DNA of 64,000 nt from a virus. Lineage: Duplodnaviria; Caudoviricetes. Positions 30,124 through 51,046 of this stretch are shown piece by piece (the stretch's first letter is position 1; the number at the start of each line of letters is the position of its first letter). The notes beneath the pieces were generated by a model, which saw only the letters and a list, made by a program, of their open reading frames with translations, searched no databases and was not told the origin of the DNA. A program made the position numbers and the translations under genes. The DNA lies in IMG/VR virus record IMGVR_UViG_3300019093_001485, positions 916 to 64,915 of that record; one strand, written 5' to 3'.

Positions 30124-30198
30124 TGGAGCATCCTGAGAGTACCGATCTCTCGTCCTTGTGCTTGGAAGGCACTCGCTCCACCATTGAGCTAAGGATGC
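30124..30198 (-). tRNA. tRNA-Gly(TCC) with atypical T-loop
   Basis: Acceptor GCATCCT/AGGATGC plus T-CCA; D arm GCTC/GAGC; anticodon loop CT-TCC-AA; T stem GAGAG/CTCTC with loop ATCGGTA. Confidence 0.85.
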
Positions 30199-41784: not shown

Positions 41785-42009
41785 TCAAAGACGCATGTTT
41801 CGGTTAGGAAACATGGCCTTGTTATGTGCCGATGAAGGTCTTTCTGTTCGTCGTCGCGATCGAATAACATTCGTGCTTCGGGCCCAGTTATTTGCCAGGT
41901 TGCGCAAAACACGGGACTGAGGAACATCCGAGGCTTTGCAACGATTTTGAAATTCCAGAAATTCATCTGCATTCAGCAGGGTTTTGACGACTATGGTTCG
42001 AGAGTTCAT
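41785..42009 (-). CDS. Small DNA-binding protein (RHH-like) at the cII position
   Basis: beta-alpha-alpha pattern TIVVKTLLNADEF...SRVLRNL; AGGA RBS; follows cro. Confidence 0.5.
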   Translation of the reverse strand: MNSRTIVVKTLLNADEFLEFQNRCKASDVPQSRVLRNLANNWARSTNVIRSRRRTERPSSAHNKAMFPNRNMRL

Positions 42010-42065
42010 GTTTTTGTCCTAGTGTTAGTGATTCAGGAATAGTGCTGCGATTCGAGGTGCCAGGG

Positions 42066-42314
42066 TTAGGAGTCACATTGGGATTCCTCCTGGAGTTCCG
42101 GCCAGAATTCGAGCCAATCATTAGGGCGCAATACTTTGAGAGATATGCCAAACCTATCGGTCACTTTTTTACAATGGCGCGCAGCAAGTGGCTTTCCACT
42201 TATATAAAGTTGATTTATATAGGCAGGAGAAACGCCGAGGAAGGAAGCTAAAGCTTTTTGACTTCCAGCCTTTGCGCTTGCCAGTTGGATTGGATTTAAG
42301 TTCTGTTCGCACAT
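42066..42314 (-). CDS. cro: Cro/YdaS-like repressor
   Basis: AGSQKALASFLGVSPAYINQL HTH and LRPNDWLEFWPEL tail; divergent from cI. Confidence 0.88.
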   Translation of the reverse strand: MCEQNLNPIQLASAKAGSQKALASFLGVSPAYINQLYISGKPLAARHCKKVTDRFGISLKVLRPNDWLEFWPELQEESQCDS

Positions 42315-42320
42315 GGCGTC

Positions 42321-42361
42321 AATATAAAGCAGTGCTTTATCAAAATCAAGCATTGATTTAT
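42321..42361. promoter_or_regulatory. OR: two 17-bp operators overlapping PR
   Basis: ATAAAGCAGTGCTTTAT (42324-42340) and ATCAAGCATTGATTTAT (42345-42361); minus-strand TTGATT, 17 bp, TATATT, 6 nt before the cro ATG. Confidence 0.88.
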
Positions 42362-42388
42362 CTGACGGCAACGAATCACAATTACTTT

Positions 42389-42877
42389 ATGAAAATCGAC
42401 CCAAATAAAGAAAATCAGGATCGCGCCGCTTTAATCAAAGAGGCTATTGCTGCTTCTGGAAAAAAGAAGTCTGCGATCGCTTTAGAGCTTGATATCAAGC
42501 CCCAGGCGATTACTGGCTGGGAAACTACTGGGCGCATCCATCGAACTATGTTGCGAAAACTGGGGCTTGTACTGGGGAAAAATCTTTGTGGAGAGGAATC
42601 TACAATTGAGGACCTGGACGAAGACACCAAGCAAGTAGTTAAACTGATGGAGATGACAGACAATGAGGGGCGTGTCCGCGCACGTATAGCCGTAACGGAC
42701 ATCCTCAATCAGTACAAATTCAACAAGCGACTTTCAGAATCGTCTGAGCCAAACATTGAGGAAGCTATTAACAGCATCAAAGACCCTCAGAAACGCGCAG
42801 TGCTTAAGGCTGCACTTGATACCATAAGTTCTATGGAGCAAGATTCTGTTGCAAAACCATTAAAGAAAGCCAGTTAA
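42389..42877 (+). CDS. CI-like repressor (XRE HTH, no S24 domain)
   Basis: KKSAIALELDIKPQAITGWETTGRI HTH; divergent from cro; helical C-terminus. Confidence 0.82.
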   Translation: MKIDPNKENQDRAALIKEAIAASGKKKSAIALELDIKPQAITGWETTGRIHRTMLRKLGLVLGKNLCGEESTIEDLDEDTKQVVKLMEMTDNEGRVRARIAVTDILNQYKFNKRLSESSEPNIEEAINSIKDPQKRAVLKAALDTISSMEQDSVAKPLKKAS

Positions 42878-42938
42878 ACAGTCATATCAGCATTAATTAT
42901 GCTAATGTGAATAGCGCGTATGCAAGAATTTTGCAACT

Positions 42939-43316
42939 ATGCATAATTCGCGCATGGACATTTCAACTAGATTAGATATGGCGATGGTTGCCGCTGGATT
43001 CCGCGATCAAAGCGATTTGGCGCGAGTCGCCGGAATCTCTCAATCCACAGCCAACAGAATTTTAAGTGGTCGGGCAAAGCAGCCCGACGCATTGAGTTTG
43101 TTCAGACTTGCGAGGGCTTGTAACGTGTCCGTTGAATGGCTTGTGTCTGGTGAGGAACCTGAAAAAATAAGTGTTTCCCTGGCTTACATCAGCAGTAAAG
43201 AGGCTGAACTACTCACCATGTACCGTCAATGTAACGACGACGGCAAAAAAGTCATCTTTGCGGCCGCGGAGACCGCTTTACAGATAGCCCCTGCGGGTGA
43301 CTCGGAAACTGAATAA
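42939..43316 (+). CDS. Second XRE-family HTH regulator
   Basis: QSDLARVAGISQSTANRILSG...LARACNVSVEWLVSG; start may be ATG 42954. Confidence 0.88.
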   Translation: MHNSRMDISTRLDMAMVAAGFRDQSDLARVAGISQSTANRILSGRAKQPDALSLFRLARACNVSVEWLVSGEEPEKISVSLAYISSKEAELLTMYRQCNDDGKKVIFAAAETALQIAPAGDSETE

Positions 43317-43485
43317 CATTCGACTTTTCCGAGAAGTCCTTTTCCAATTTCTCCATAAATCCCACTGCGAACCGGCGACCAGAACTATTTAGCCGGTTAA
43401 ACACGCACATCGCCGCTATCTGCTCTTCCGTCATCTCAACACTTTCGGTCTTTTGTAGTGCACCCAACTGTTGCTCCGAATCCAT
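43252..43485 (-). CDS. Small protein resembling the XRE C-terminal helix pair (candidate antirepressor)
   Basis: GAAGGG RBS before ATG 43485; EEQIAAMCVFNRLNSSGRRFAVGFME resembles KEAELLTMYRQCNDDGKKVIFAAAE of the neighbouring XRE. Confidence 0.55.
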   Translation of the reverse strand: MDSEQQLGALQKTESVEMTEEQIAAMCVFNRLNSSGRRFAVGFMEKLEKDFSEKSNVIQFPSHPQGLSVKRSPRPQR

Positions 43486-43746
43486 TAAGTTACCCTTCGC
43501 CTTAGTTGTTACAAACCAGCTTGCTCCGTTACAGAGGAAAAGATTATATTTCCAAAATTCCAATGTTTCATTTGAAACGCATTGTAGTATCACTTTAAAT
43601 GATTTTGCAATGTTTTTCATTTGAATAATTGAAGAAACTAATGGACATGATCCAAGGGAAATAAAGCTCTTTCGTTAAACTTCTCTTGTTGCAAATGAAA
43701 TTATATCATTGTAAAATACCTAATTTAATCATTTTAAGTGATATTC

Positions 43747-44394
43747 ATGTCCCTACCCGCGATTACCCTCGTTACGGCAGATGATCAGCATATGTTGCTT
43801 GCGCTGTATCAGTACTATGCAGAAGAGCATGGCATGACTGTGATAGAGGAATGCAAAACTCCAGAGCAAGCAATTGAGTCATATTCAAAGCATCAGCCCC
43901 AGGTCATTTTGCTTGATATTCGATTTGGTACTGATATGTCTGGCTTTGATATTGCAAGAGAGATTCTGAAAAAACATCCAAATGCGAATATCGTTTTCAT
44001 CAGTCAATATGACCAGGCATCGTATATAGGCGAAGCTTATCGCGTCGGGGCAAAGGCCTTTTTAACAAAGAATTGTGATGCAGATACTTTTAAAAAAGCC
44101 ATTCAGGCTGCTAGCAAAGGCGAAAAATTCTTTATGCCTGAACTACTGGAAAAAGCTGTTCAACTGGTGACCAATCCGGAAATGAACCCGAAGCTAGTTT
44201 TGCAAGAAAAGAATCTATTCGAAGTATTTATACTGCTTGCCGAAGGCCTGACGAACGAAGAGATTGCCGAAAAGCTTGGTGTGGATAAACGTACCGTATC
44301 ACTCAATCGACAAAAAATTCAAGACAGATTGAATATTAGTAGGCTGCAGGAATACACAAGAATGGCAATCGCCCATGGCCTGATGGAGCCTTGA
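43747..44394 (+). CDS. NarL/LuxR-family response regulator
   Basis: REC residues ADD, LLDI, FISQ, FLTK intact; LuxR HTH GLTNEEIAEKLGVDKRTV. Confidence 0.93.
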   Translation: MSLPAITLVTADDQHMLLALYQYYAEEHGMTVIEECKTPEQAIESYSKHQPQVILLDIRFGTDMSGFDIAREILKKHPNANIVFISQYDQASYIGEAYRVGAKAFLTKNCDADTFKKAIQAASKGEKFFMPELLEKAVQLVTNPEMNPKLVLQEKNLFEVFILLAEGLTNEEIAEKLGVDKRTVSLNRQKIQDRLNISRLQEYTRMAIAHGLMEP

Positions 44395-44413
44395 GGCCCA
44401 TTAAACATATTCA

Positions 44414-45871
44414 ATGATAGACCTACACAAGATAATTCCTCTTCGATGGTTTTTTCCATTGATTGCAGTGCTGCCGGTTTTTATCGTCGCCTGCCTGGCC
44501 GGCGTATTTCTTGATGTAAGTATTTCAAACCAGCTAGACAATCAGTTAGAAAATAATTTGCGCGGACTCGGTGAAAACATTTCAAATTCTTCAGAATTTG
44601 CATTGCAGACCCAAAATACATCAGAACTCAAAAAAGTAATTTGTGCAAGCTTGTATCTATCAGCTGAAATCAATGAGATTGAGATTTTAGATGACAGTTC
44701 TGTAAAGTTAGACGATTGCCGCCGGATGGTTAAAATTGAAGGTGACTCAATAGCAGTGACCCTTCCAATTCACCCACTAAACAGGGATCAAGTTAAATCT
44801 ACGAGCAAAAATATTGTCATTGGATATGTACGAATAACCGCAGCAAAATCCGTCGTCGAAAATGAAAAACGACTGATCAGGTGGGTATTATTCCTGGTTC
44901 TGACTTTTGCTGTACTACTCACACTTTTATTCTCTTATTTTTTCACAAAAAAATTAGCTTTTGCAGTAATCGAGTTATCACAGGCGTCAAAAAGTATTAC
45001 GGAAAAAAATTTCCAAATCGAATTTTCGAAAATGCTTGGTGGCGAAGTAGGTCAAATGCAAAAGTCATTTTTGGAAATGTCGAGGACTATGTCCGACTTT
45101 ACAAAACACCTGAACAATAATGTGGAAGCCAGAACCAAAGAACTTGATACCCAGAAAAATTTGCTAGAAAAAGCCTATACAGAAAACAAAAGATTAATTC
45201 ATCGCATCAACACTGCGATTGAGAATGAACGCAGATTGATTGCTCTTGATTTACACGATGTATTTAATACAGTCATCTTGCACATCTTAGGGACTGCGCG
45301 CCAGACAAAGTCAATGCTGCATAAAGTCGCCCAACAGGTAGACGTTTCAGGCGCGCAGTCGAATTTAGTAGCCATTGAACACAATGCCAATCACCTGTAC
45401 GCCTTGTCTAAAGATTTGGTTTCGAATCTAAGACCGGAAGTGCTTGACGAGTTCGGCCTGGCAGAGGCCTTGCAGGATTTAGTAACCAAACACGGGAATT
45501 CGCATGCCGATTGCCAATACTCTTTGAAACTCAATGGTCAAATTCCCCGGTTTGATTACGATTTCAATATTGCCATATTCAGGATTGTTCAAGAATCACT
45601 ATCGAATGTCGCCAAACATGCAAACGCGACCCAATGCAAGATCACTTTAACTGTTATTGATAAGATTAATCATTGTCGCATCGTATTAAGCATTATTGAC
45701 GACGGCAACGGATTTGATATGCGAAACCGTAAGCAAGGCTTTGGCCTGGACGGTATGCGTGAAAGAGCTGGAGGCATTGGCGGCACCATCGAAGTTTCGG
45801 CTGCACCAGGTGCAAGTACTAATATCTTGCTTTGCGTAGACAAATATATTCAATCTAAAACAGAAATATAG
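44414..45871 (+). CDS. Membrane sensor histidine kinase (HAMP, HisKA_3, HATPase)
   Basis: Two TMs; ERRLIALDLHD; QESLSNVAKHANA; DDGNGF; GFGLDGMRERA. Confidence 0.95.
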   Translation: MIDLHKIIPLRWFFPLIAVLPVFIVACLAGVFLDVSISNQLDNQLENNLRGLGENISNSSEFALQTQNTSELKKVICASLYLSAEINEIEILDDSSVKLDDCRRMVKIEGDSIAVTLPIHPLNRDQVKSTSKNIVIGYVRITAAKSVVENEKRLIRWVLFLVLTFAVLLTLLFSYFFTKKLAFAVIELSQASKSITEKNFQIEFSKMLGGEVGQMQKSFLEMSRTMSDFTKHLNNNVEARTKELDTQKNLLEKAYTENKRLIHRINTAIENERRLIALDLHDVFNTVILHILGTARQTKSMLHKVAQQVDVSGAQSNLVAIEHNANHLYALSKDLVSNLRPEVLDEFGLAEALQDLVTKHGNSHADCQYSLKLNGQIPRFDYDFNIAIFRIVQESLSNVAKHANATQCKITLTVIDKINHCRIVLSIIDDGNGFDMRNRKQGFGLDGMRERAGGIGGTIEVSAAPGASTNILLCVDKYIQSKTEI

Positions 45872-47626
45872 ATGAATAATATCTATAAATATATATTCGC
45901 TACCATTGCGTTGATTGGACTCGTGAATCTAATTACGCCTTACGTTCTTGCATCTGAGCGGACGCAAGAAAATAGGGTCGACAGTCTTATACGCCAGCAG
46001 TCCTACAACTTCCGATTTAGCTTTGATAAAAGCGATTCAACACTGATTGAACTAAAAAAATTGGAGCCTTTTTTTACGAAAAAGCAAAAAGATCTTGTAT
46101 ATCTTATGCATGCAGCCGTCCTGGGCTTCCAAGGGAAACATACGGAACGTACGGCACTAGTGAATGGATATCTTACGCAAGTTACCGATGCCGACATGAG
46201 AGCTAGATTTCTTGACCAACTAATAGGAGCATATTCGAACCTTGGCGAATATGAAAAAGCAATCTTATCAATGAACGAAGCCACAGCGCTACTACCAGCT
46301 TTAAGGACACGTGAGGGAATAAGCGCCACTTTACAGGGGGCAGTCAATCTACTGCGTACACTAAAAGAATATGACGAAGCTTTGGTTTATGCAAACAGGA
46401 TGTTAGAGCTCAAACCAAATCCCGATCGCCCTTCAGAGCGGTGCTTGGGCATTTTGAATACCGTTGAACTGAATTACATACGTGGTGATGTACAACATGC
46501 AAGATCACTCATTCCCGAATCAGATGCAACTTGCAAGGTTGGCGGAAATAGACTCTACGTTCAAATTTTGCAAGCAATGTCTGTGATAGACCTAATAAAT
46601 TCTGGCAATTATCAAAAGGGTATAAATCAAGGCGTCCCTTTGGCAGCAGATTTCGAAAATCTTAATCATCGTAATGAGTATAGGATGCGACTTGAAGAGG
46701 CTTTGGCAAAAGCTTTTATGTCTTCAAATGATCTAAAGTCGGCATCAAAATTCGGGTTACTAGCTTTTGATCATGCTAAAGAAGCAAAAGCAGTCGAGCA
46801 GGTTGAATCTGCAGCCGAGACCATGGCAAAAGTGCACGAGCGCCAGGGAGACAATCCAAACGCGTTAGCATTCTTAAAGATTGCGTTTGAGTATCGAAAA
46901 AAACGAACAGACGATGACCTTCTAAAAAACCTCGCTTACCAACGCGTTAAATTCAATTTGCGCGAAAAAGCGATGCAATTAAGTGCATTGGAGAATAAAA
47001 ACCAAGTATTGCGCATTGAGCAGGAACTCGAAAAGAAAAACACACAAACAATATTCTGGGTTGCAGTTTTTTCCGCGACTGTGATGATCATCCTGTTGGT
47101 AATGTTGATATTTTTCATAAAGCAAAGGAAGAAATATTTAAGGTTAGTGCAGATTGACCAACTAACAAATATTTTTGATCGGACATTTTTTATATCCCGT
47201 GCCTCCGAGAAAATTGCAGGTCGTCTAGCACCTATCTCTATTGTTCTGCTAAATCTTGACCGATTCAGGAAAATCAACGCTGCGTACGGTTTCTCCATGG
47301 GAGATCACATACTCGTTGAAGTATGTTCAAAAATTAAGACTCTATTAACAGTCGATGACCTTTTTGGAAGAATGCAGGGCGATGAATTCGCAATATGCAT
47401 GGTCGGTCCCACTGAAGAATTAGCCAGGCATTTAGCTGAGAAATGTCGCCTGGCCATTTTAGAATTGAATATAGATAAGTTGACGCCAGACCATAAACTG
47501 ACTGCTAGCATCGGTGTGGCGACAATTGATACAAAAGGACTGACAAATTTCGAAGATACCCTCAATGCAGCGCGCGACTCCCTACTTCTTTCAAAAAGTT
47601 TAGGCGGTAATTGCGTCAACGGTTAG
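45872..47626 (+). CDS. Periplasmic TPR, TM, degenerate GGDEF protein
   Basis: N-terminal signal/TM; TPR helices (AYSNLGEYEKAI, EYDEALVYA); TM; DQLT...LLNLDRFRKINAAYGFSMGD...GRMQGDEF...TASIGV. Confidence 0.9.
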   Translation: MNNIYKYIFATIALIGLVNLITPYVLASERTQENRVDSLIRQQSYNFRFSFDKSDSTLIELKKLEPFFTKKQKDLVYLMHAAVLGFQGKHTERTALVNGYLTQVTDADMRARFLDQLIGAYSNLGEYEKAILSMNEATALLPALRTREGISATLQGAVNLLRTLKEYDEALVYANRMLELKPNPDRPSERCLGILNTVELNYIRGDVQHARSLIPESDATCKVGGNRLYVQILQAMSVIDLINSGNYQKGINQGVPLAADFENLNHRNEYRMRLEEALAKAFMSSNDLKSASKFGLLAFDHAKEAKAVEQVESAAETMAKVHERQGDNPNALAFLKIAFEYRKKRTDDDLLKNLAYQRVKFNLREKAMQLSALENKNQVLRIEQELEKKNTQTIFWVAVFSATVMIILLVMLIFFIKQRKKYLRLVQIDQLTNIFDRTFFISRASEKIAGRLAPISIVLLNLDRFRKINAAYGFSMGDHILVEVCSKIKTLLTVDDLFGRMQGDEFAICMVGPTEELARHLAEKCRLAILELNIDKLTPDHKLTASIGVATIDTKGLTNFEDTLNAARDSLLLSKSLGGNCVNG

Positions 47627-48133
47627 CTGTCCGTAATATTTCATTGACACGTCTTGTCGTTGGACGGTCAATGGATCCGTTGTGAGCAGCCATAACCTCT
47701 TCCTGCTGTATCGGAGTTGCATAGTCAATCCGGAAATGTGCCCCAGAACTGCGTTCAAGTGCAAATTTTGTGAAGGTGAGAAGGATCTCTGACGGAACGC
47801 AATTCCAAAGTGTGAAAACACCGCCCCCCATTTCGAAGAGAGAGTCCTGAGTTTTTTTGGCGCCAACAGTAGGAAACTTAACTTCATGGCCCAGATCGCT
47901 CAAGACCTGTTCAATCGTTTCGTTTCCTGCATGTTTTACATAGAAACTAGTTCCGCAACTTTTTTCTAAAGCGAAGCGCATCCCAGCTTCCAACAAATCG
48001 TCCGGCATGCCGTGCCAAAGATATATTTCTCCCTGCCCTGACTCGAGTTGGGATGCATACAGTTCAGCTTGTGTGCGAACAAGGCATTTAGCAATTTAGT
48101 TTTTTGATCAATGTCAGTCGTAGAACTTCCCAT
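47616..48133 (-). CDS. Two-repeat protein of unknown function; probable frameshift near 48095
   Basis: Internal duplication GQGEIYLWHGMPDDLL..RFALEKSCG / GGGVFTLWNCVPSEIL..KFALERSSG begins upstream of the tracked ATG 48008; ATG 48133 is out of frame by one base. Confidence 0.6.
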
Positions 48134-48139
48134 ATCAAT

Positions 48140-48355
48140 CTAATAGCCGACGACTAAAGTGTCCAATGAACCGTATTCAGCGTTAGGTATGCCAACGATA
48201 TCAGCAACCACCTGTTTGTCGCCAGTGTGAATTGCAGCCTGTTCTGCAACAGTCAAACCATATTTTGTCATTGCAGCTTCTGGATTTTCATTGTGAGCTT
48301 CACGAGCAACGGCATTTTTGTCCAGCAGATTCAAATATGCTAATAAGTTAGACAT
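48140..48355 (-). CDS. SonA-like split-borosin RiPP precursor (borosin-binding domain plus short core)
   Basis: 71 aa; NPEAAMTKYGLTVAEQAAIHTGD resembles Shewanella SonA NPEAVMRAHGLTDEQINAVMTGD as recalled; aliphatic C-terminal tail; next to a TPR-GGDEF gene. Confidence 0.78.
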   Translation of the reverse strand: MSNLLAYLNLLDKNAVAREAHNENPEAAMTKYGLTVAEQAAIHTGDKQVVADIVGIPNAEYGSLDTLVVGY

Positions 48356-48566
48356 TTCGCTTTACCTTTCCAATACATACTTTGGTTAAAAAAACATAAT
48401 ATTGCACAAGCATTTTATTATGATTTCTGCTATATGACTTAGTTTTTCTTGACCTGATCAGGGCTCTTAAATTTGACACGTTCGCCTGGAGTGATTTTTG
48501 GATTCGACAGGTCCAAGATAGACGGCCTTGTTGCAACTATCAATAACAACAAGGCTGTTCTCATTC

Positions 48567-49067
48567 TTACATCCCTAGCCCTGAACCGCTGCCGCTGGGT
48601 TCAGGCTTTTGATCATTCTCGTCATGCCCGGCTTGCTGCATTCCCAATTCAATTACATCATCAAGCTCTTTTACAACTTGTTCGGCCTGCAGCTTGCTTA
48701 AGCATCTCGCCTGGAAAGTACCAGAGGCATCATAAACACCATATCCAGTTACGACGTACTTGCCATTTTTTATCGTCACATATTCAACAACTTTGTGCCC
48801 GTACCTCCCAACAAACCAGATAAAACCAATCAACTCACCTGATCTTTCCGGCTGCAGCTCCGCCACACCACCTATAAGGTCGCTGGCCCATTTAGCCGCT
48901 TGTTCTTTATCCTCAAATATTGCAACCAATCTGTATTCTTCGTTATCGTCAAGAGCCATGACCGCATATCCTACAAGCTCATTGCGATCACCTGTTGAAT
49001 AGACTTTACAAATCAAGTACTTCCCAGAGTCGTCAACATATTCCAGCGTTCTAACATCATATTCCAT
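48567..49067 (-). CDS. Acidic hypothetical protein with internal repeat
   Basis: GAGG RBS; two VGY.V...K.QA units; tail PEPSGSGSGLGM. Confidence 0.7.
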   Translation of the reverse strand: MEYDVRTLEYVDDSGKYLICKVYSTGDRNELVGYAVMALDDNEEYRLVAIFEDKEQAAKWASDLIGGVAELQPERSGELIGFIWFVGRYGHKVVEYVTIKNGKYVVTGYGVYDASGTFQARCLSKLQAEQVVKELDDVIELGMQQAGHDENDQKPEPSGSGSGLGM

Positions 49068-49306
49068 AGATTTAACCTCTCAGAAAACTTCATGTTTTCA
49101 ACAATCACCCCAAAACCCTTGGCACCAGTAGCACTTAGGCCAGTTCATCTACTTTAGCTATTTCCCTGATTTTCATTTGCGACAAATTACGCTCTGATTT
49201 TACGCCCCTTCCCTTTTTTAGCCTTCGCGATCGTGGCCTCAGCTTCGCTTTGATACGCACATGCTGCACTGCACAATCGAAAAGATAAATAAAATTCAAA
49301 ATTTAG

Positions 49307-49347
49307 ATAAAGCACTGCTTTACTTTAATAAAGCTTTGCTTTATTAT
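49307..49347 (+). promoter_or_regulatory. OL: two 17-bp operators overlapping PL
   Basis: ATAAAGCACTGCTTTAC (49307-49323) and ATAAAGCTTTGCTTTAT (49328-49344); TTTACT, 17 bp, TATTAT. Confidence 0.88.
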
Positions 49348-49383
49348 TCATACATCGCAGCAAACAATTAATCAGGAGCCGAG

Positions 49384-49599
49384 ATGATCACACAAACACC
49401 TTTCAACTTGCCAACAGGCCACTTTGCCCAACCAGCAGTTGCATCGAACGCCCTGGTCATCAACGGCCAAAACCTGATTGATGCTTTTGCTGATTGTGAC
49501 ATGGAACAGTGCGACAAGTTGGCCTCGTTGCTGGCAAGCGGTCGTCATGAGCAAGTAGGCCGAATGCTGGAAGCGATTTTCTACAAATGGGCCGAATGA
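49384..49599 (+). CDS. First PL-operon protein, hypothetical
   Basis: AGGAG RBS directly after PL. Confidence 0.7.
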   Translation: MITQTPFNLPTGHFAQPAVASNALVINGQNLIDAFADCDMEQCDKLASLLASGRHEQVGRMLEAIFYKWAE

Positions 49600-50640
49600 T
49601 TTTCTGATACCCCGAAAAGTCCTGGTGATGGCGAACAAAAGACCACCGGACAGAATAGGCAAGTACCTGGCAGCTCGGAACTAGACGGGCAACGAATTAA
49701 AGATTGGTCGCTGGCACCAAGTTTCAAGCCAGCAGGGAAATCTGGGTGCCTGAATGACCTGGCCTCTGTATCGGGTGATGCCTCTAGTCTTGAGTTGGGA
49801 CGGACAGTCGGGAAAGACCGACAAAGAATTGCAGTAGAGAAGATTGCAAGACTGGCTGAATCGTGACGTCAAGTAGCGCTGTACTGCGCGAAAACCTATG
49901 AACGAAAGATGCCATGAGCAAGCCGAGGACGGAAGGCACTGCCGTGACAGCCTGGAGAGACAGGCATCAAAACAAAACCGGCTTCACCCGCCTTGGCCAG
50001 CGGAGCTCCCGATGTACGAGGCCGGTTCTGTTTTGAGTTTGACTCGCCTGCAGTGTGTTTCTCACCCACCCTGCCGCCTTCCGTGGTCGATAAATCGGAC
50101 TGGTAACTCTCTGCCAGCGAAGTTCTAAAAGAGGGCACCACACAAAACCAGCGGCTAAACGAAGACCATGGCGCGCCTCCGATGGTCGGATACCGGAGAA
50201 AGACCGGGCCGCTGGTTCTGTGTGGTGAATACCAAAAGGACGCACCCCGAGAGGGCGCTCTGCAAAGCATCGCAGGAATCTGCTTAGCCTGTTAATCATG
50301 ATCGGGTTTTGCGGTAGCCCAGATAGAAATCTGAAGGAAGCATGATTAACCTTCGGCACCTGTCGATAAGTCCGTCGCCGCAGACGGTAATCGCGACTGC
50401 TGGGACGAGAGTAACCCAGCGCCAACAGGAAAGAGGGGGCACTGCAAAACGGTCTTCCCGAGCACACGTAGTACCGAACGACCGAGAGGGTGTGCTAACG
50501 ACGGGTGAATTCCTCTTTTTCCTGTTGGTAAATGCATGATTGGATCTGGACGGTTCGAACCCGTACCCGAAACTCCCAGAGTAGTCGAGCTGGCATAGTC
50601 GAAAAATAGTGAAGATAGCCCATTTGCCAACACCTAATTT
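49600..50640 (+). ncRNA. About 1-kb hairpin-rich non-coding tract in the early-left transcript
   Basis: No convincing ORF; repeated GACA-stem-GARAGA-stem hairpins and a T-loop-like hairpin. Confidence 0.45.
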
Positions 50641-50656
50641 AACCAGGAGATCAGCA

Positions 50657-51046
50657 ATGAATGCAGCAGATCAGTTTGAAGCACCAAAACACACGCCGGG
50701 ACCGTGGGAAGCGATTGGCAATTTGGTTCGCTCCCCTATGGTTCACCCGCAGGGTACTGATAGGCCGCGAGGAATCATGCTTGCGGAATGCGCAGATGGA
50801 TACGGCGTCAAGGCAAACAGCGCTGAAGCCGCCGCAAATGCCAGGCTCTTCGCTGCGGCACCTGATTTGCTGGCCGAGTTGGTCATGGCTGGCCAGGTCA
50901 TCAGCGTGCTGCTGAACGAGTTGACTGTCGAGCAAAAGCGCAACTGTGCAGCAAAAATCGACGCATTGGGCATACACGGCGAAGGCATGATCAGGGCAAA
51001 TGAGCGTGATGCAGTCATGAAAAAGGCCACGGGAGCACCAACATGA
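50657..51046 (+). CDS. Conserved phage protein
   Basis: KHTPGPW...ANARLFAAAPDLL family; AGGAG RBS. Confidence 0.85.
   Translation: MNAADQFEAPKHTPGPWEAIGNLVRSPMVHPQGTDRPRGIMLAECADGYGVKANSAEAAANARLFAAAPDLLAELVMAGQVISVLLNELTVEQKRNCAAKIDALGIHGEGMIRANERDAVMKKATGAPT

Follow-up and report, generated by a model that had tools for sequence, protein, structure and literature searches.

A predicted split borosin precursor and a degenerate TPR-GGDEF protein in a lambdoid prophage without a borosin methyltransferase

We analyzed a 64,000-nt stretch of viral DNA (the window; positions 916-64,915 of the IMG/VR provirus record IMGVR_UViG_3300019093_001485, 64,915 nt in full) and found that the open reading frame (ORF) at 48140..48355 on its minus strand encodes a 71-residue protein that, judged by its sequence and predicted fold, is a SonA-type (type IV split borosin) precursor. 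The provirus holds an incomplete borosin cluster, with the precursor present and the methyltransferase absent. The precursor is accompanied by a two-component system and by a borosin-cluster-type protein that joins a TPR part to a degenerate GGDEF domain, and the borosin module recurs in a second prophage. Because the prophage has the precursor and a membrane-sensor partner and not the methylating enzyme, our results suggest that the phage taps into or interferes with the peptide signalling of its host. The explanation we favour, to which we would give about an even chance, is that the island serves lysogenic conversion: the module would rely on a SonM-type enzyme of the host and alter the lysogen's production or perception of borosin peptides and of cyclic di-GMP (c-di-GMP).

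The precursor peptide and the missing methyltransferase

Translation of the minus strand at 48140..48355 gave exactly the 71-aa protein quoted in the initial annotation, and a Shine-Dalgarno-like AAGG lies 9 nt ahead of its ATG. That annotation had likened the protein to SonA, and the database searches bear the likeness out. A phmmer search against 177,635 PDB sequences returned SonA chains as all of its best seven matches (E 2.2e-4 to 1.4e-3), and residues 1-55 align with residues 1-55 of SonA without a gap, with NPEA.M..(H/Y)GLT......A..TGD in common. The AlphaFold2 model of the precursor, built from a 30-row alignment (mean predicted local distance difference test score (pLDDT) 73.4), has helices at residues 3-13, 15-23, 25-31, 36-44, and 47-54. 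Searching the PDB with this model in Foldseek again placed SonA chains first (target-normalised TM score 0.89-0.91, root-mean-square deviation 0.8-1.2 Å over 50-55 columns), with E-values that are weak (0.03-0.1) because the precursor is short, and the clasp region of OphMA and LigAB ranked far below SonA.

These rankings also bear on whether the protein could be a LigA-like helical protein with an unrelated role instead of a borosin precursor, a reading to which we give almost no credence. Pfam LigA matches the precursor below threshold only (E 8.4e-4; 19.9 bits, cut-off 25.3), NCBIfam yields a weak match to the protocatechuate 4,5-dioxygenase alpha subunit that lies far under its cut-off (E 6e-3), and the LigAB chain 1bou_A stands at rank 30 of the fold search. 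The LigA label is no contradiction to the borosin assignment because SonA itself was deposited in the PDB as a 'LigA domain-containing protein'. Moreover, SonA outranks LigA in both the sequence and the fold searches, no LigB-type gene occurs among the scanned neighbours, and SonM-type genes neighbour the precursor family in 26 of the 26 informative loci described below. The initial annotation had named membership in a LigA-like family without any link to methyltransferases as the outcome that would speak against it, and the searches point the other way. PHROGs and PADLOC, searched with the precursor, returned no match.

A word-indexed protein search retrieved a single cluster of relatives at 93% identity (P0001), and a HMMER search against 1.84 billion representatives retrieved 40 proteins at E<=1e-3 (best 3.4e-13), mostly of ~70 aa. 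In the 30-member family alignment, residues 1-56 are conserved and the last 12-15 are freely variable; a conserved leader with a hypervariable tail, as read from this alignment, is the usual shape of a precursor family of peptides that are ribosomally synthesized and then post-translationally modified (RiPPs). Gly55 of the precursor aligns with Gly55 of SonA, after which the 16-mer product of SonA starts according to PMC10549244. By this analogy we predict a leader of residues 1-55, forming the five-helix borosin-binding domain, followed after Gly55 by a 16-residue core, IPNAEYGSLDTLVVGY.

The initial annotation had recognized no SonM-type methyltransferase in the 64 kb, and our searches agree. 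Across the full 64,915-nt provirus record, Pfam PF00590 had 0 matches, compared with 14 of 14 control genomes that it matched, and tblastn with three SonM-type proteins reached a best E of only 0.22. The precursor-family profile, run across the same record, found one copy only.

To see what normally surrounds such precursors, we turned to bacterial genomes. A profile scan of species-representative genomes located 14 precursor loci (by title, 8 from Undibacterium isolates, 3 from Undibacterium metagenome-assembled genomes (MAGs), 2 from Rhodoferax MAGs, and 2 from other MAGs, a breakdown that sums to 15, so that only the total of 14 is taken as firm), and a metagenome scan located 22 further loci (closest 63%), which makes n=36 related loci, some of the metagenome loci duplicating one organism (L029/L030/L031, L041/L042, L040/L043). 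Downstream of the precursor and on its strand, each of the 14 genome loci encodes a ~585-aa protein with TPR and GGDEF matches and a ~270-aa TP_methylase, and the native clusters are collinear in the order precursor, cyclase, methyltransferase; the methyltransferase of L001 matches SonM at E 2.3e-82. Both genes are present in 26 of the 26 loci that reach at least 2.7 kb past the precursor. The contigs of the other 10 of the 36 stop short of the methyltransferase position, eight of them showing the start of the cyclase and two ending within 184 nt of the precursor. An M14 gene lies upstream in seven of the 14 genome loci. The window precursor is 41-64% identical to the native ones over the best-matching segment, and the phage copies are the most divergent members of the family.

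We extended the tally to 84 genomes of Undibacterium, the genus of L001, with the window GGDEF protein and SonM-type proteins as queries. A SonM-type gene occurs in 43 of the 84, and the same 43 hold the native cluster cyclase (34-42% identical to the window GGDEF protein). G439 is an exception to the adjacency of the two, its SonM-type gene (C9:42347-43144) and cluster cyclase (C9:148073-149713) lying ~105 kb apart. From this gene distribution, dependence of the prophage on its host for methylation is plausible.

A prediction of the precursor-methyltransferase complex had been called for by the initial annotation. We modeled the window precursor with methyltransferase 2 of the Undibacterium genome G443, using a 15-enzyme alignment, and obtained a score of 0.76, the best of three controls reaching 0.15; the mark applied to this score is reached by 58 of 80 solved complexes and by 2 of 110 mismatched pairs. 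Contacts agreed between runs to at least 86%, the partner pLDDT was at least 82, and the precursor touches the enzyme in the model with residues 1-13 and 42-56 and with core residues 64-71. SonM-SonA complexes are solved, so the model may echo known structures, and a stand-in enzyme from a different genome was used; the model thus shows the likeness of the phage copy to a SonA-type substrate, and not binding.

The island, its degenerate TPR-GGDEF protein, and a sister prophage

The precursor belongs to a cargo island, whose genes and flanks are as follows.

42939..43316, plus strand: cI-like repressor that flanks the island on the left and shares the strand of the regulator-kinase-GGDEF operon; Pfam HTH_3 and Phage_CI_repr, PHROG transcriptional repressors; 47% identical to the same-place gene of the sister prophage
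43738..44394, plus strand: NarL/LuxR-type response regulator, 218 aa; Pfam Response_reg and GerE; sister-prophage copy 83% identical
44414..45871, plus strand: HisKA_3 histidine kinase (Pfam), 485 aa; two transmembrane segments around a ~110-aa periplasmic stretch; sister-prophage copy 74% identical
45872..47626, plus strand: borosin-cluster-type TPR-transmembrane-GGDEF protein, 584 aa; Pfam GGDEF (1.2e-26) and TPR; degenerate site NLDRFRKINAAYGF...TVDD...QGDEF
47616..48133, minus strand: gene annotated without a function, 168-172 aa in relatives; starts 7 nt past the precursor stop and is split by a frameshift in the window
48140..48355, minus strand: predicted SonA-type split borosin precursor, 71 aa; SonA chains are its top PDB sequence and fold matches
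48567..49067, minus strand: 166-aa ORF upstream of the precursor, without a Pfam, PHROG or PADLOC match; forms the island's variable end and has no counterpart in the sister island
49384..49599, plus strand: small conserved phage gene, right flank of the island; resembles by eye the 98-aa product of L055:5831-6127(-); no family match

The operon lies directly downstream of the cI-like repressor and runs from the response regulator through the kinase to the degenerate GGDEF gene, which comes last and whose start abuts the kinase stop; the precursor and the GGDEF gene are convergent and 514 bp apart in the window. The initial annotation had called the precursor an orphan, which holds for the methyltransferase but not for the rest of a borosin locus, given the TPR-GGDEF partner and the two-component system close by. 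Because the precursor travels with these genes, an explanation has to cover the whole module.

The window is laid out like a lambdoid prophage, and the island separates the cI-like repressor from the arm that carries RecT, the exonuclease genes and the integrase. Left of the cI-like gene and of a cro-like gene near it, also left of the island (Pfam and PHROG), the minus strand carries terminase, portal, major head and tail genes, a NinB-like gene and helicases, among which the replication helicase is DnaB-like by family searches. Right of the island, the plus strand carries a phrog_1273 gene, RecT and exonuclease genes, and the integrase stands at the right end of the record. Because this layout surrounds the island, the precursor is phage cargo and not flanking host DNA. 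The GC content of the island (~43.7-49.1 kb) is 0.41-0.45, compared with 0.50-0.55 in the phage body, and the island occupies what we take to be the position that lambda gives to rexAB. A megablast of 42000-50600 against 50,697 phage records gave no match, IMG/VR profile scans with the precursor alignment and the degenerate-GGDEF alignment found no relative, the window's own record possibly being excluded, and the island DNA has short matches only (67-88% identity) to 401 genomes of the family.

Several features of the record lie outside the module. Within the prophage, a tRNA-Gly (TCC) at 30124-30198 separates the replication module from the packaging module. At the left record end, a gene pair at 307-2055 is umuD/umuC-like as inferred from position and size, its second gene matching the PHROG 'DNA polymerase' at 2e-150; its DNA is 80% identical to that of the genome G419 and 66-73% identical to other Undibacterium genomes, and it is either phage cargo or host flank. 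Right of the island, the ORF-poor stretch 49700-50600 shares near-identical blocks, split by large indels, with L055:4300-5480. Folding the segment 49815-50040 gave z scores of -2.79 (plus strand) and -1.31 (minus strand), which makes it a candidate structured RNA, and an Rfam search of 49500-50700 returned RAGATH-32 alone, at E 0.62.

The 584-aa protein has a signal or transmembrane segment at residues 7-27, Pfam TPR matches within 116-184, a transmembrane segment at 391-419, and the GGDEF domain at 427-580, which corresponds to a predicted periplasmic TPR part and a cytoplasmic GGDEF domain. It aligns with the cluster cyclases of all 14 genome loci at 34-40% identity over ~530-580 residues (E 1e-106 to 7e-149) and with the cluster cyclases of all loci at 28-40%; other GGDEF proteins of the 14 loci match it in the GGDEF domain only. 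The catalytic motifs are canonical in 17 of the 17 cluster cyclases of the genome loci, and in 18 of 18 with the native cyclase of G443 added (D-M-D-x-F-K-x-(I/V)-N-D..G-H..G-D and G-R-L-G-G-E-E-F). The window protein reads N-L-D-R-F-R-K-I-N-A..G-F..G-D and G-R-M-Q-G-D-E-F, with TVDD at the RxxD inhibitory site, and an alignment to the solved cyclase 6et7 confirmed the register of these motifs. Metal coordination in PleD involves the first Asp, and substrate binding depends on the GG turn. Because both are altered, the window GGDEF domain is probably inactive in c-di-GMP synthesis.

The same degeneration is seen in P0046-P0048, which are ~50% identical to the window protein, and in the sister-prophage copy, that is, in five of the five subfamily members: (N/D)LDRFR, N(A/E), GF, and QG, GN, GT or GA replacing GG. 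Because the signature is kept across five proteins that are only ~50% identical, the alignment indicates a conserved subfamily with a maintained, altered function, and not random decay. A search with P0046 in a sample of 401 genomes of the family found nothing above 41% identity. Comparing the parts of the protein, we found window-native identities of 39% in the GGDEF domain and 37% in the periplasmic part, against native-native identities of 64% and 51%, so the loss of identity is greater in the GGDEF domain. The lowest value of all parts is that of the transmembrane segment, at 21% (37-39% in the others).

This pattern would also fit an island that jams the host pathway. The leader would occupy the host methyltransferase as a competitive substrate or decoy, and the dead TPR-GGDEF protein would soak up native peptide or form inactive heterodimers, lowering c-di-GMP. 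GGDEF cyclases act as dimers, the active site is degenerate throughout the subfamily with the periplasmic part kept, and the complex model puts the precursor on a host-type enzyme, with the same caveats of solved relatives and a stand-in partner. SonM and SonA also bind tightly, 8 M urea having been used for their separation according to PMC10549244. However, a pure decoy needs no native-like core that is kept and varied, heterodimers would have to form through the transmembrane segment, where conservation is lowest, and a cyclase-cyclase heterodimer is itself hypothetical. We consider jamming unlikely.

The second prophage came from the genus tally. One of the 84 Undibacterium genomes, G443, holds a closer copy of the window GGDEF protein, in two pieces of 57% and 70% identity. 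The gene order of this locus (L055) is RecT-like, phrog_1273-like, conserved small gene, two unrelated cargo genes, 77-aa precursor, GGDEF C-terminal piece (QGDEF), insertion sequence (IS) transposase, TPR N-terminal piece, kinase, regulator, and cI-like gene. The precursor is 68% identical to that of the window; the values for the kinase, the regulator and the cI-like gene are listed above. The IS transposase (HTH_29 and rve; L055:8429-9553, on G443:C3) is inserted at about residue 417 of the sister GGDEF gene, between the transmembrane segment and the GGDEF domain, and a portal homologue lies 16-21 kb from the island on the same contig. The island, with regulator, kinase, degenerate GGDEF protein and precursor and without the methyltransferase, thus stands at the same place in both prophages. 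Neither G443 nor G419 encodes a close relative of the window integrase, and because the integrase is not shared, we regard the two prophages as mosaic relatives and not as the same phage.

On another contig, G443 has a native cluster (L056:2992-10175, on G443:C6) with an M14 carboxypeptidase-like gene, a precursor, a canonical GGEEF cyclase, two precursors, a methyltransferase, a fourth precursor, and a second methyltransferase. One of the four native precursors has 71 aa and ends at the aromatic residue, and the other three extend 10-19 acidic residues past that residue; the only SonM-type matches in G443 are the two enzymes of this cluster. We regard it as firm that the borosin module is found again in this second prophage, in a host with the complete native system, and equally that the window ORF is a SonA-type precursor and that it lies on a prophage without the enzyme.

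We also looked for the island in sequencing runs. It is almost complete in lake-water metagenome runs, two of which are flagged as potential sources, and in organism A, and partial in organism B; 43700-48145 is nearly identical in all runs, with at most one difference per contig left of 48145, and no RNA run is listed among those containing the island. In organism B (runs X7 and X8), 48147-48916 has 35 differences (9 in one contig and 26 in the next, the latter within 349 nt), which suggests, from the sequence pattern, a recombination junction at the precursor 3' end and an island that is mosaic there. Organism B has codons 36-37 of the leader altered and the core kept.

Within the island, one base is lacking in the window after 48059, where four of four runs have an extra C. 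This C joins the frames 48133-48062 (24 codons) and 48059-47616 (147 codons) into a gene of ~172 aa, and the base loss is either a record error or a real frameshift. Intact relatives of the gene are P0044 (168 aa, 92% identical) and a cluster member of 172 aa; the sister island lacks the gene. The product of 47616-48133 shows two internal repeats by eye; the gene has no Pfam, PHROG or PADLOC match, an Atlas search with P0044 gave no usable match, and the single-sequence AlphaFold2 model of P0044 has a mean pLDDT of 42.7.

These observations allow us to weigh whether the island is a non-functional hitch-hiker, a host borosin cluster fragment picked up by imprecise recombination and decaying without its enzyme. 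The missing methyltransferase, the rearranged gene order, the degenerate cyclase site, the IS in the sister copy, and the frameshift next to the precursor in the window record are all in line with decay. However, the precursor ORF is intact, of the same length, and gap-free in two prophages that differ at about one third of its residues. In the gap-free DNA alignment of the two precursor genes, which we counted by hand, 26 of 71 codons have synonymous changes only and 23 of 71 change the amino acid; because the former outnumber the latter, the alignment indicates purifying selection on the phage precursor. The kinase and the regulator are likewise conserved (74-83%), the degenerate GGDEF signature is shared by five ~50%-identical proteins, and the frameshift is absent from four of four runs. 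Decay of a captured fragment is accordingly distinctly unlikely in our judgement.

Possible roles of the island

To compare the putative cores, we aligned the last ten residues of the precursors without gaps.

Window precursor: GSLDTLVVGY
P0001 (the 93% variant): DALDTIVVGY
Sister phage: GALETLEIGY
G443 native precursors: PALDTTESVY, DSLDTTEIGF, DAIDSVETLF, DAIDTIETPF
L001 (U. umbellatum): NALDSIVTAP
L008 (U. pigrum): PAIDSVESPY

The phage cores fall inside the native motif of the large-genome Undibacterium group, [AS][LI][DE][TS]x[EV]xx[YF]. P0001 differs from the window precursor at five residues, all of them in 59-67 and none in 1-58.

The initial annotation had proposed that the phage either borrows a host borosin methyltransferase or titrates it. 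The support is circumstantial, coming from G443 with its two SonM homologues and four native precursors, the 43 of 84 genomes with a SonM-type gene, the native-like core, and the complex model, and the proposal is one that we infer. Taking it up, the lysogenic-conversion module that we favour could work as follows. The precursor leader would dock on the host SonM-type enzyme, the native-like core would be N-methylated by that enzyme and then cut after Gly55 to give a 16-mer, and the phage GGDEF protein would bind this 16-mer, or the native peptides, through its periplasmic TPR domain. Because this protein probably cannot make c-di-GMP, it would change the response of the lysogen to the signal, possibly via the co-transcribed kinase and regulator. 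The net effect could be a private signal variant or a damping of the host signal.

Several points weigh against this explanation. A SonM-type enzyme is present in only 43 of the 84 genus genomes; the assignment of the window host to Undibacterium, which should be read as provisional, rests on the distribution of homologues, the 80% DNA identity of the umuDC-like flank in G419, and the sister prophage. Methylation, processing, export and expression of the window peptide are hypothetical. The island has neither an exporter nor a protease, its genes are rearranged, running convergently in the phage and collinearly in the chromosomes, and because the sister GGDEF gene is broken by the IS, the GGDEF part can evidently be lost. 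Loss of catalysis through QGDEF and NLD is a prediction from sequence. The mature borosin of S. oneidensis was recovered from cell pellets but not from supernatants (PMC10549244), which is awkward for a periplasmic receptor, and the searched literature demonstrates a link between the peptide and the GGDEF protein in no system.

The position of the island next to the immunity region raises a different explanation, communication between phages. A phage-specific peptide would be sensed by the TPR-GGDEF protein, the kinase or both, and the LuxR-type regulator would act on the cI/cro switch, by analogy with arbitrium. In both prophages, the island abuts the cI-like/cro-like region, the regulator (83%) and the kinase (74%) are the best-conserved island genes, and the close variant P0001 differs in the core only, like pherotype diversification. 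On the other hand, organism B varies in the leader and not in the core, the periplasmic part of the kinase showed no similarity to the TPR sensor, the target of the regulator is hypothetical, the island encodes no exporter, and the available part of PMC10549244 holds no evidence that the peptide leaves the cell. Such communication is in our opinion very unlikely. A broader version, to which we give a slim chance, is phage-owned signalling from borosin parts in a Gram-negative host, with a host-matured peptide, dead TPR-GGDEF proteins and/or kinases as sensors, and a LuxR-type output to cI/cro or to host behaviour, working in an arbitrium-like manner or by eavesdropping; if true, this circuit would also report the activity of the host borosin machinery.

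Returning to the host-dependent conversion module, two diverged prophages keep the precursor and the TPR-GGDEF protein and drop the enzyme, which offers independent genetic evidence that the two form a functional pair, either signal and sensor or substrate and sink. The island is accordingly a compact system for testing the pairing of peptide and GGDEF protein. If our explanation is right, a phage would supply a RiPP pathway of its host with the substrate alone, accompanied by a conserved family of catalytically degenerate cyclases, and both points bear on how prophages rewire the second-messenger signalling of their hosts.

Comparison with known systems

Bacterial split borosins were found by genome mining, and their native role is described as unknown in PMC10549244 and bioRxiv 2021.12.24.474128. 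The literature we searched describes neither a borosin precursor carried by a phage nor a degenerate GGDEF subfamily from borosin clusters, the supplements (Dataset 3 of bioRxiv 2021.12.24.474128; Fig. S15 of bioRxiv 2024.01.09.574750) lying outside that scope; borosins are scarcely treated jointly with c-di-GMP there, and none of the papers listed joins borosins, GGDEF and prophages. The papers on phage-encoded RiPP precursors include none on borosins, judged by title. Phage integrases have been reported near the borosin clusters of Shewanella and Legionella.

The best-known relative is the son cluster of Shewanella oneidensis MR-1, a type IV split borosin cluster with the product shewanellamide A, which consists of SonM (SO1478), SonA (SO1479), a GGDEF protein (SO1480), and an efflux pump (SO1481) and whose native role is called elusive in PMC10549244. 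Among the accessory domains of split borosin clusters, GGDEF is the most frequent (56%), with a predicted arrangement of periplasmic TPR, transmembrane segment and GGDEF, according to bioRxiv 2021.12.24.474128. The window island shares with the son cluster the 71-aa precursor, the predicted five-helix leader, the Gly55 junction, the 16-residue tail, and the GGDEF companion. It differs in lacking SonM and the efflux pump, in lying in a prophage, in its degenerate GGDEF domain, and in its additional two-component system; the core is unrelated to YLVISHGNGD of SonA, and the identity to SonA is low (E ~1e-4). With the native clusters of Undibacterium, Rhodoferax and other Burkholderiales (L001-L014, L023-L044, L056), the island shares the precursor family, the cyclase family and, for the large-genome Undibacterium group, the core motif. 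In contrast to the phage copies, which have no enzyme, the native clusters are collinear, carry GGEEF in 18 of 18 cyclases, and include the enzyme in 26 of 26 loci where the flank allows it to be seen.

Type X borosins also tie a TPR-transmembrane-GGDEF protein to borosin biosynthesis, according to bioRxiv 2021.12.24.474128. However, the type X cyclase is fused to the N-methyltransferase, whereas the window keeps a cyclase-like protein without a methyltransferase. Considering repressor-adjacent cargo, the island presumably resembles the morons of the lambda rexAB type, being next to the repressor and on its strand, and arbitrium AimP/AimR, in that a temperate phage pairs a small peptide with a receptor-like protein. 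Neither is related to the island in sequence, and the receptor type, the Gram-negative host, and the involvement of a host modifying enzyme are different. Finally, as in the phage-borne RiPP and bacteriocin clusters described in bioRxiv 10.1101/2020.10.01.322628, a temperate phage carries natural-product cargo here, but unlike those biosynthetic clusters, the window carries only the substrate and a sensor-like partner, and maturation of the peptide would need the host.

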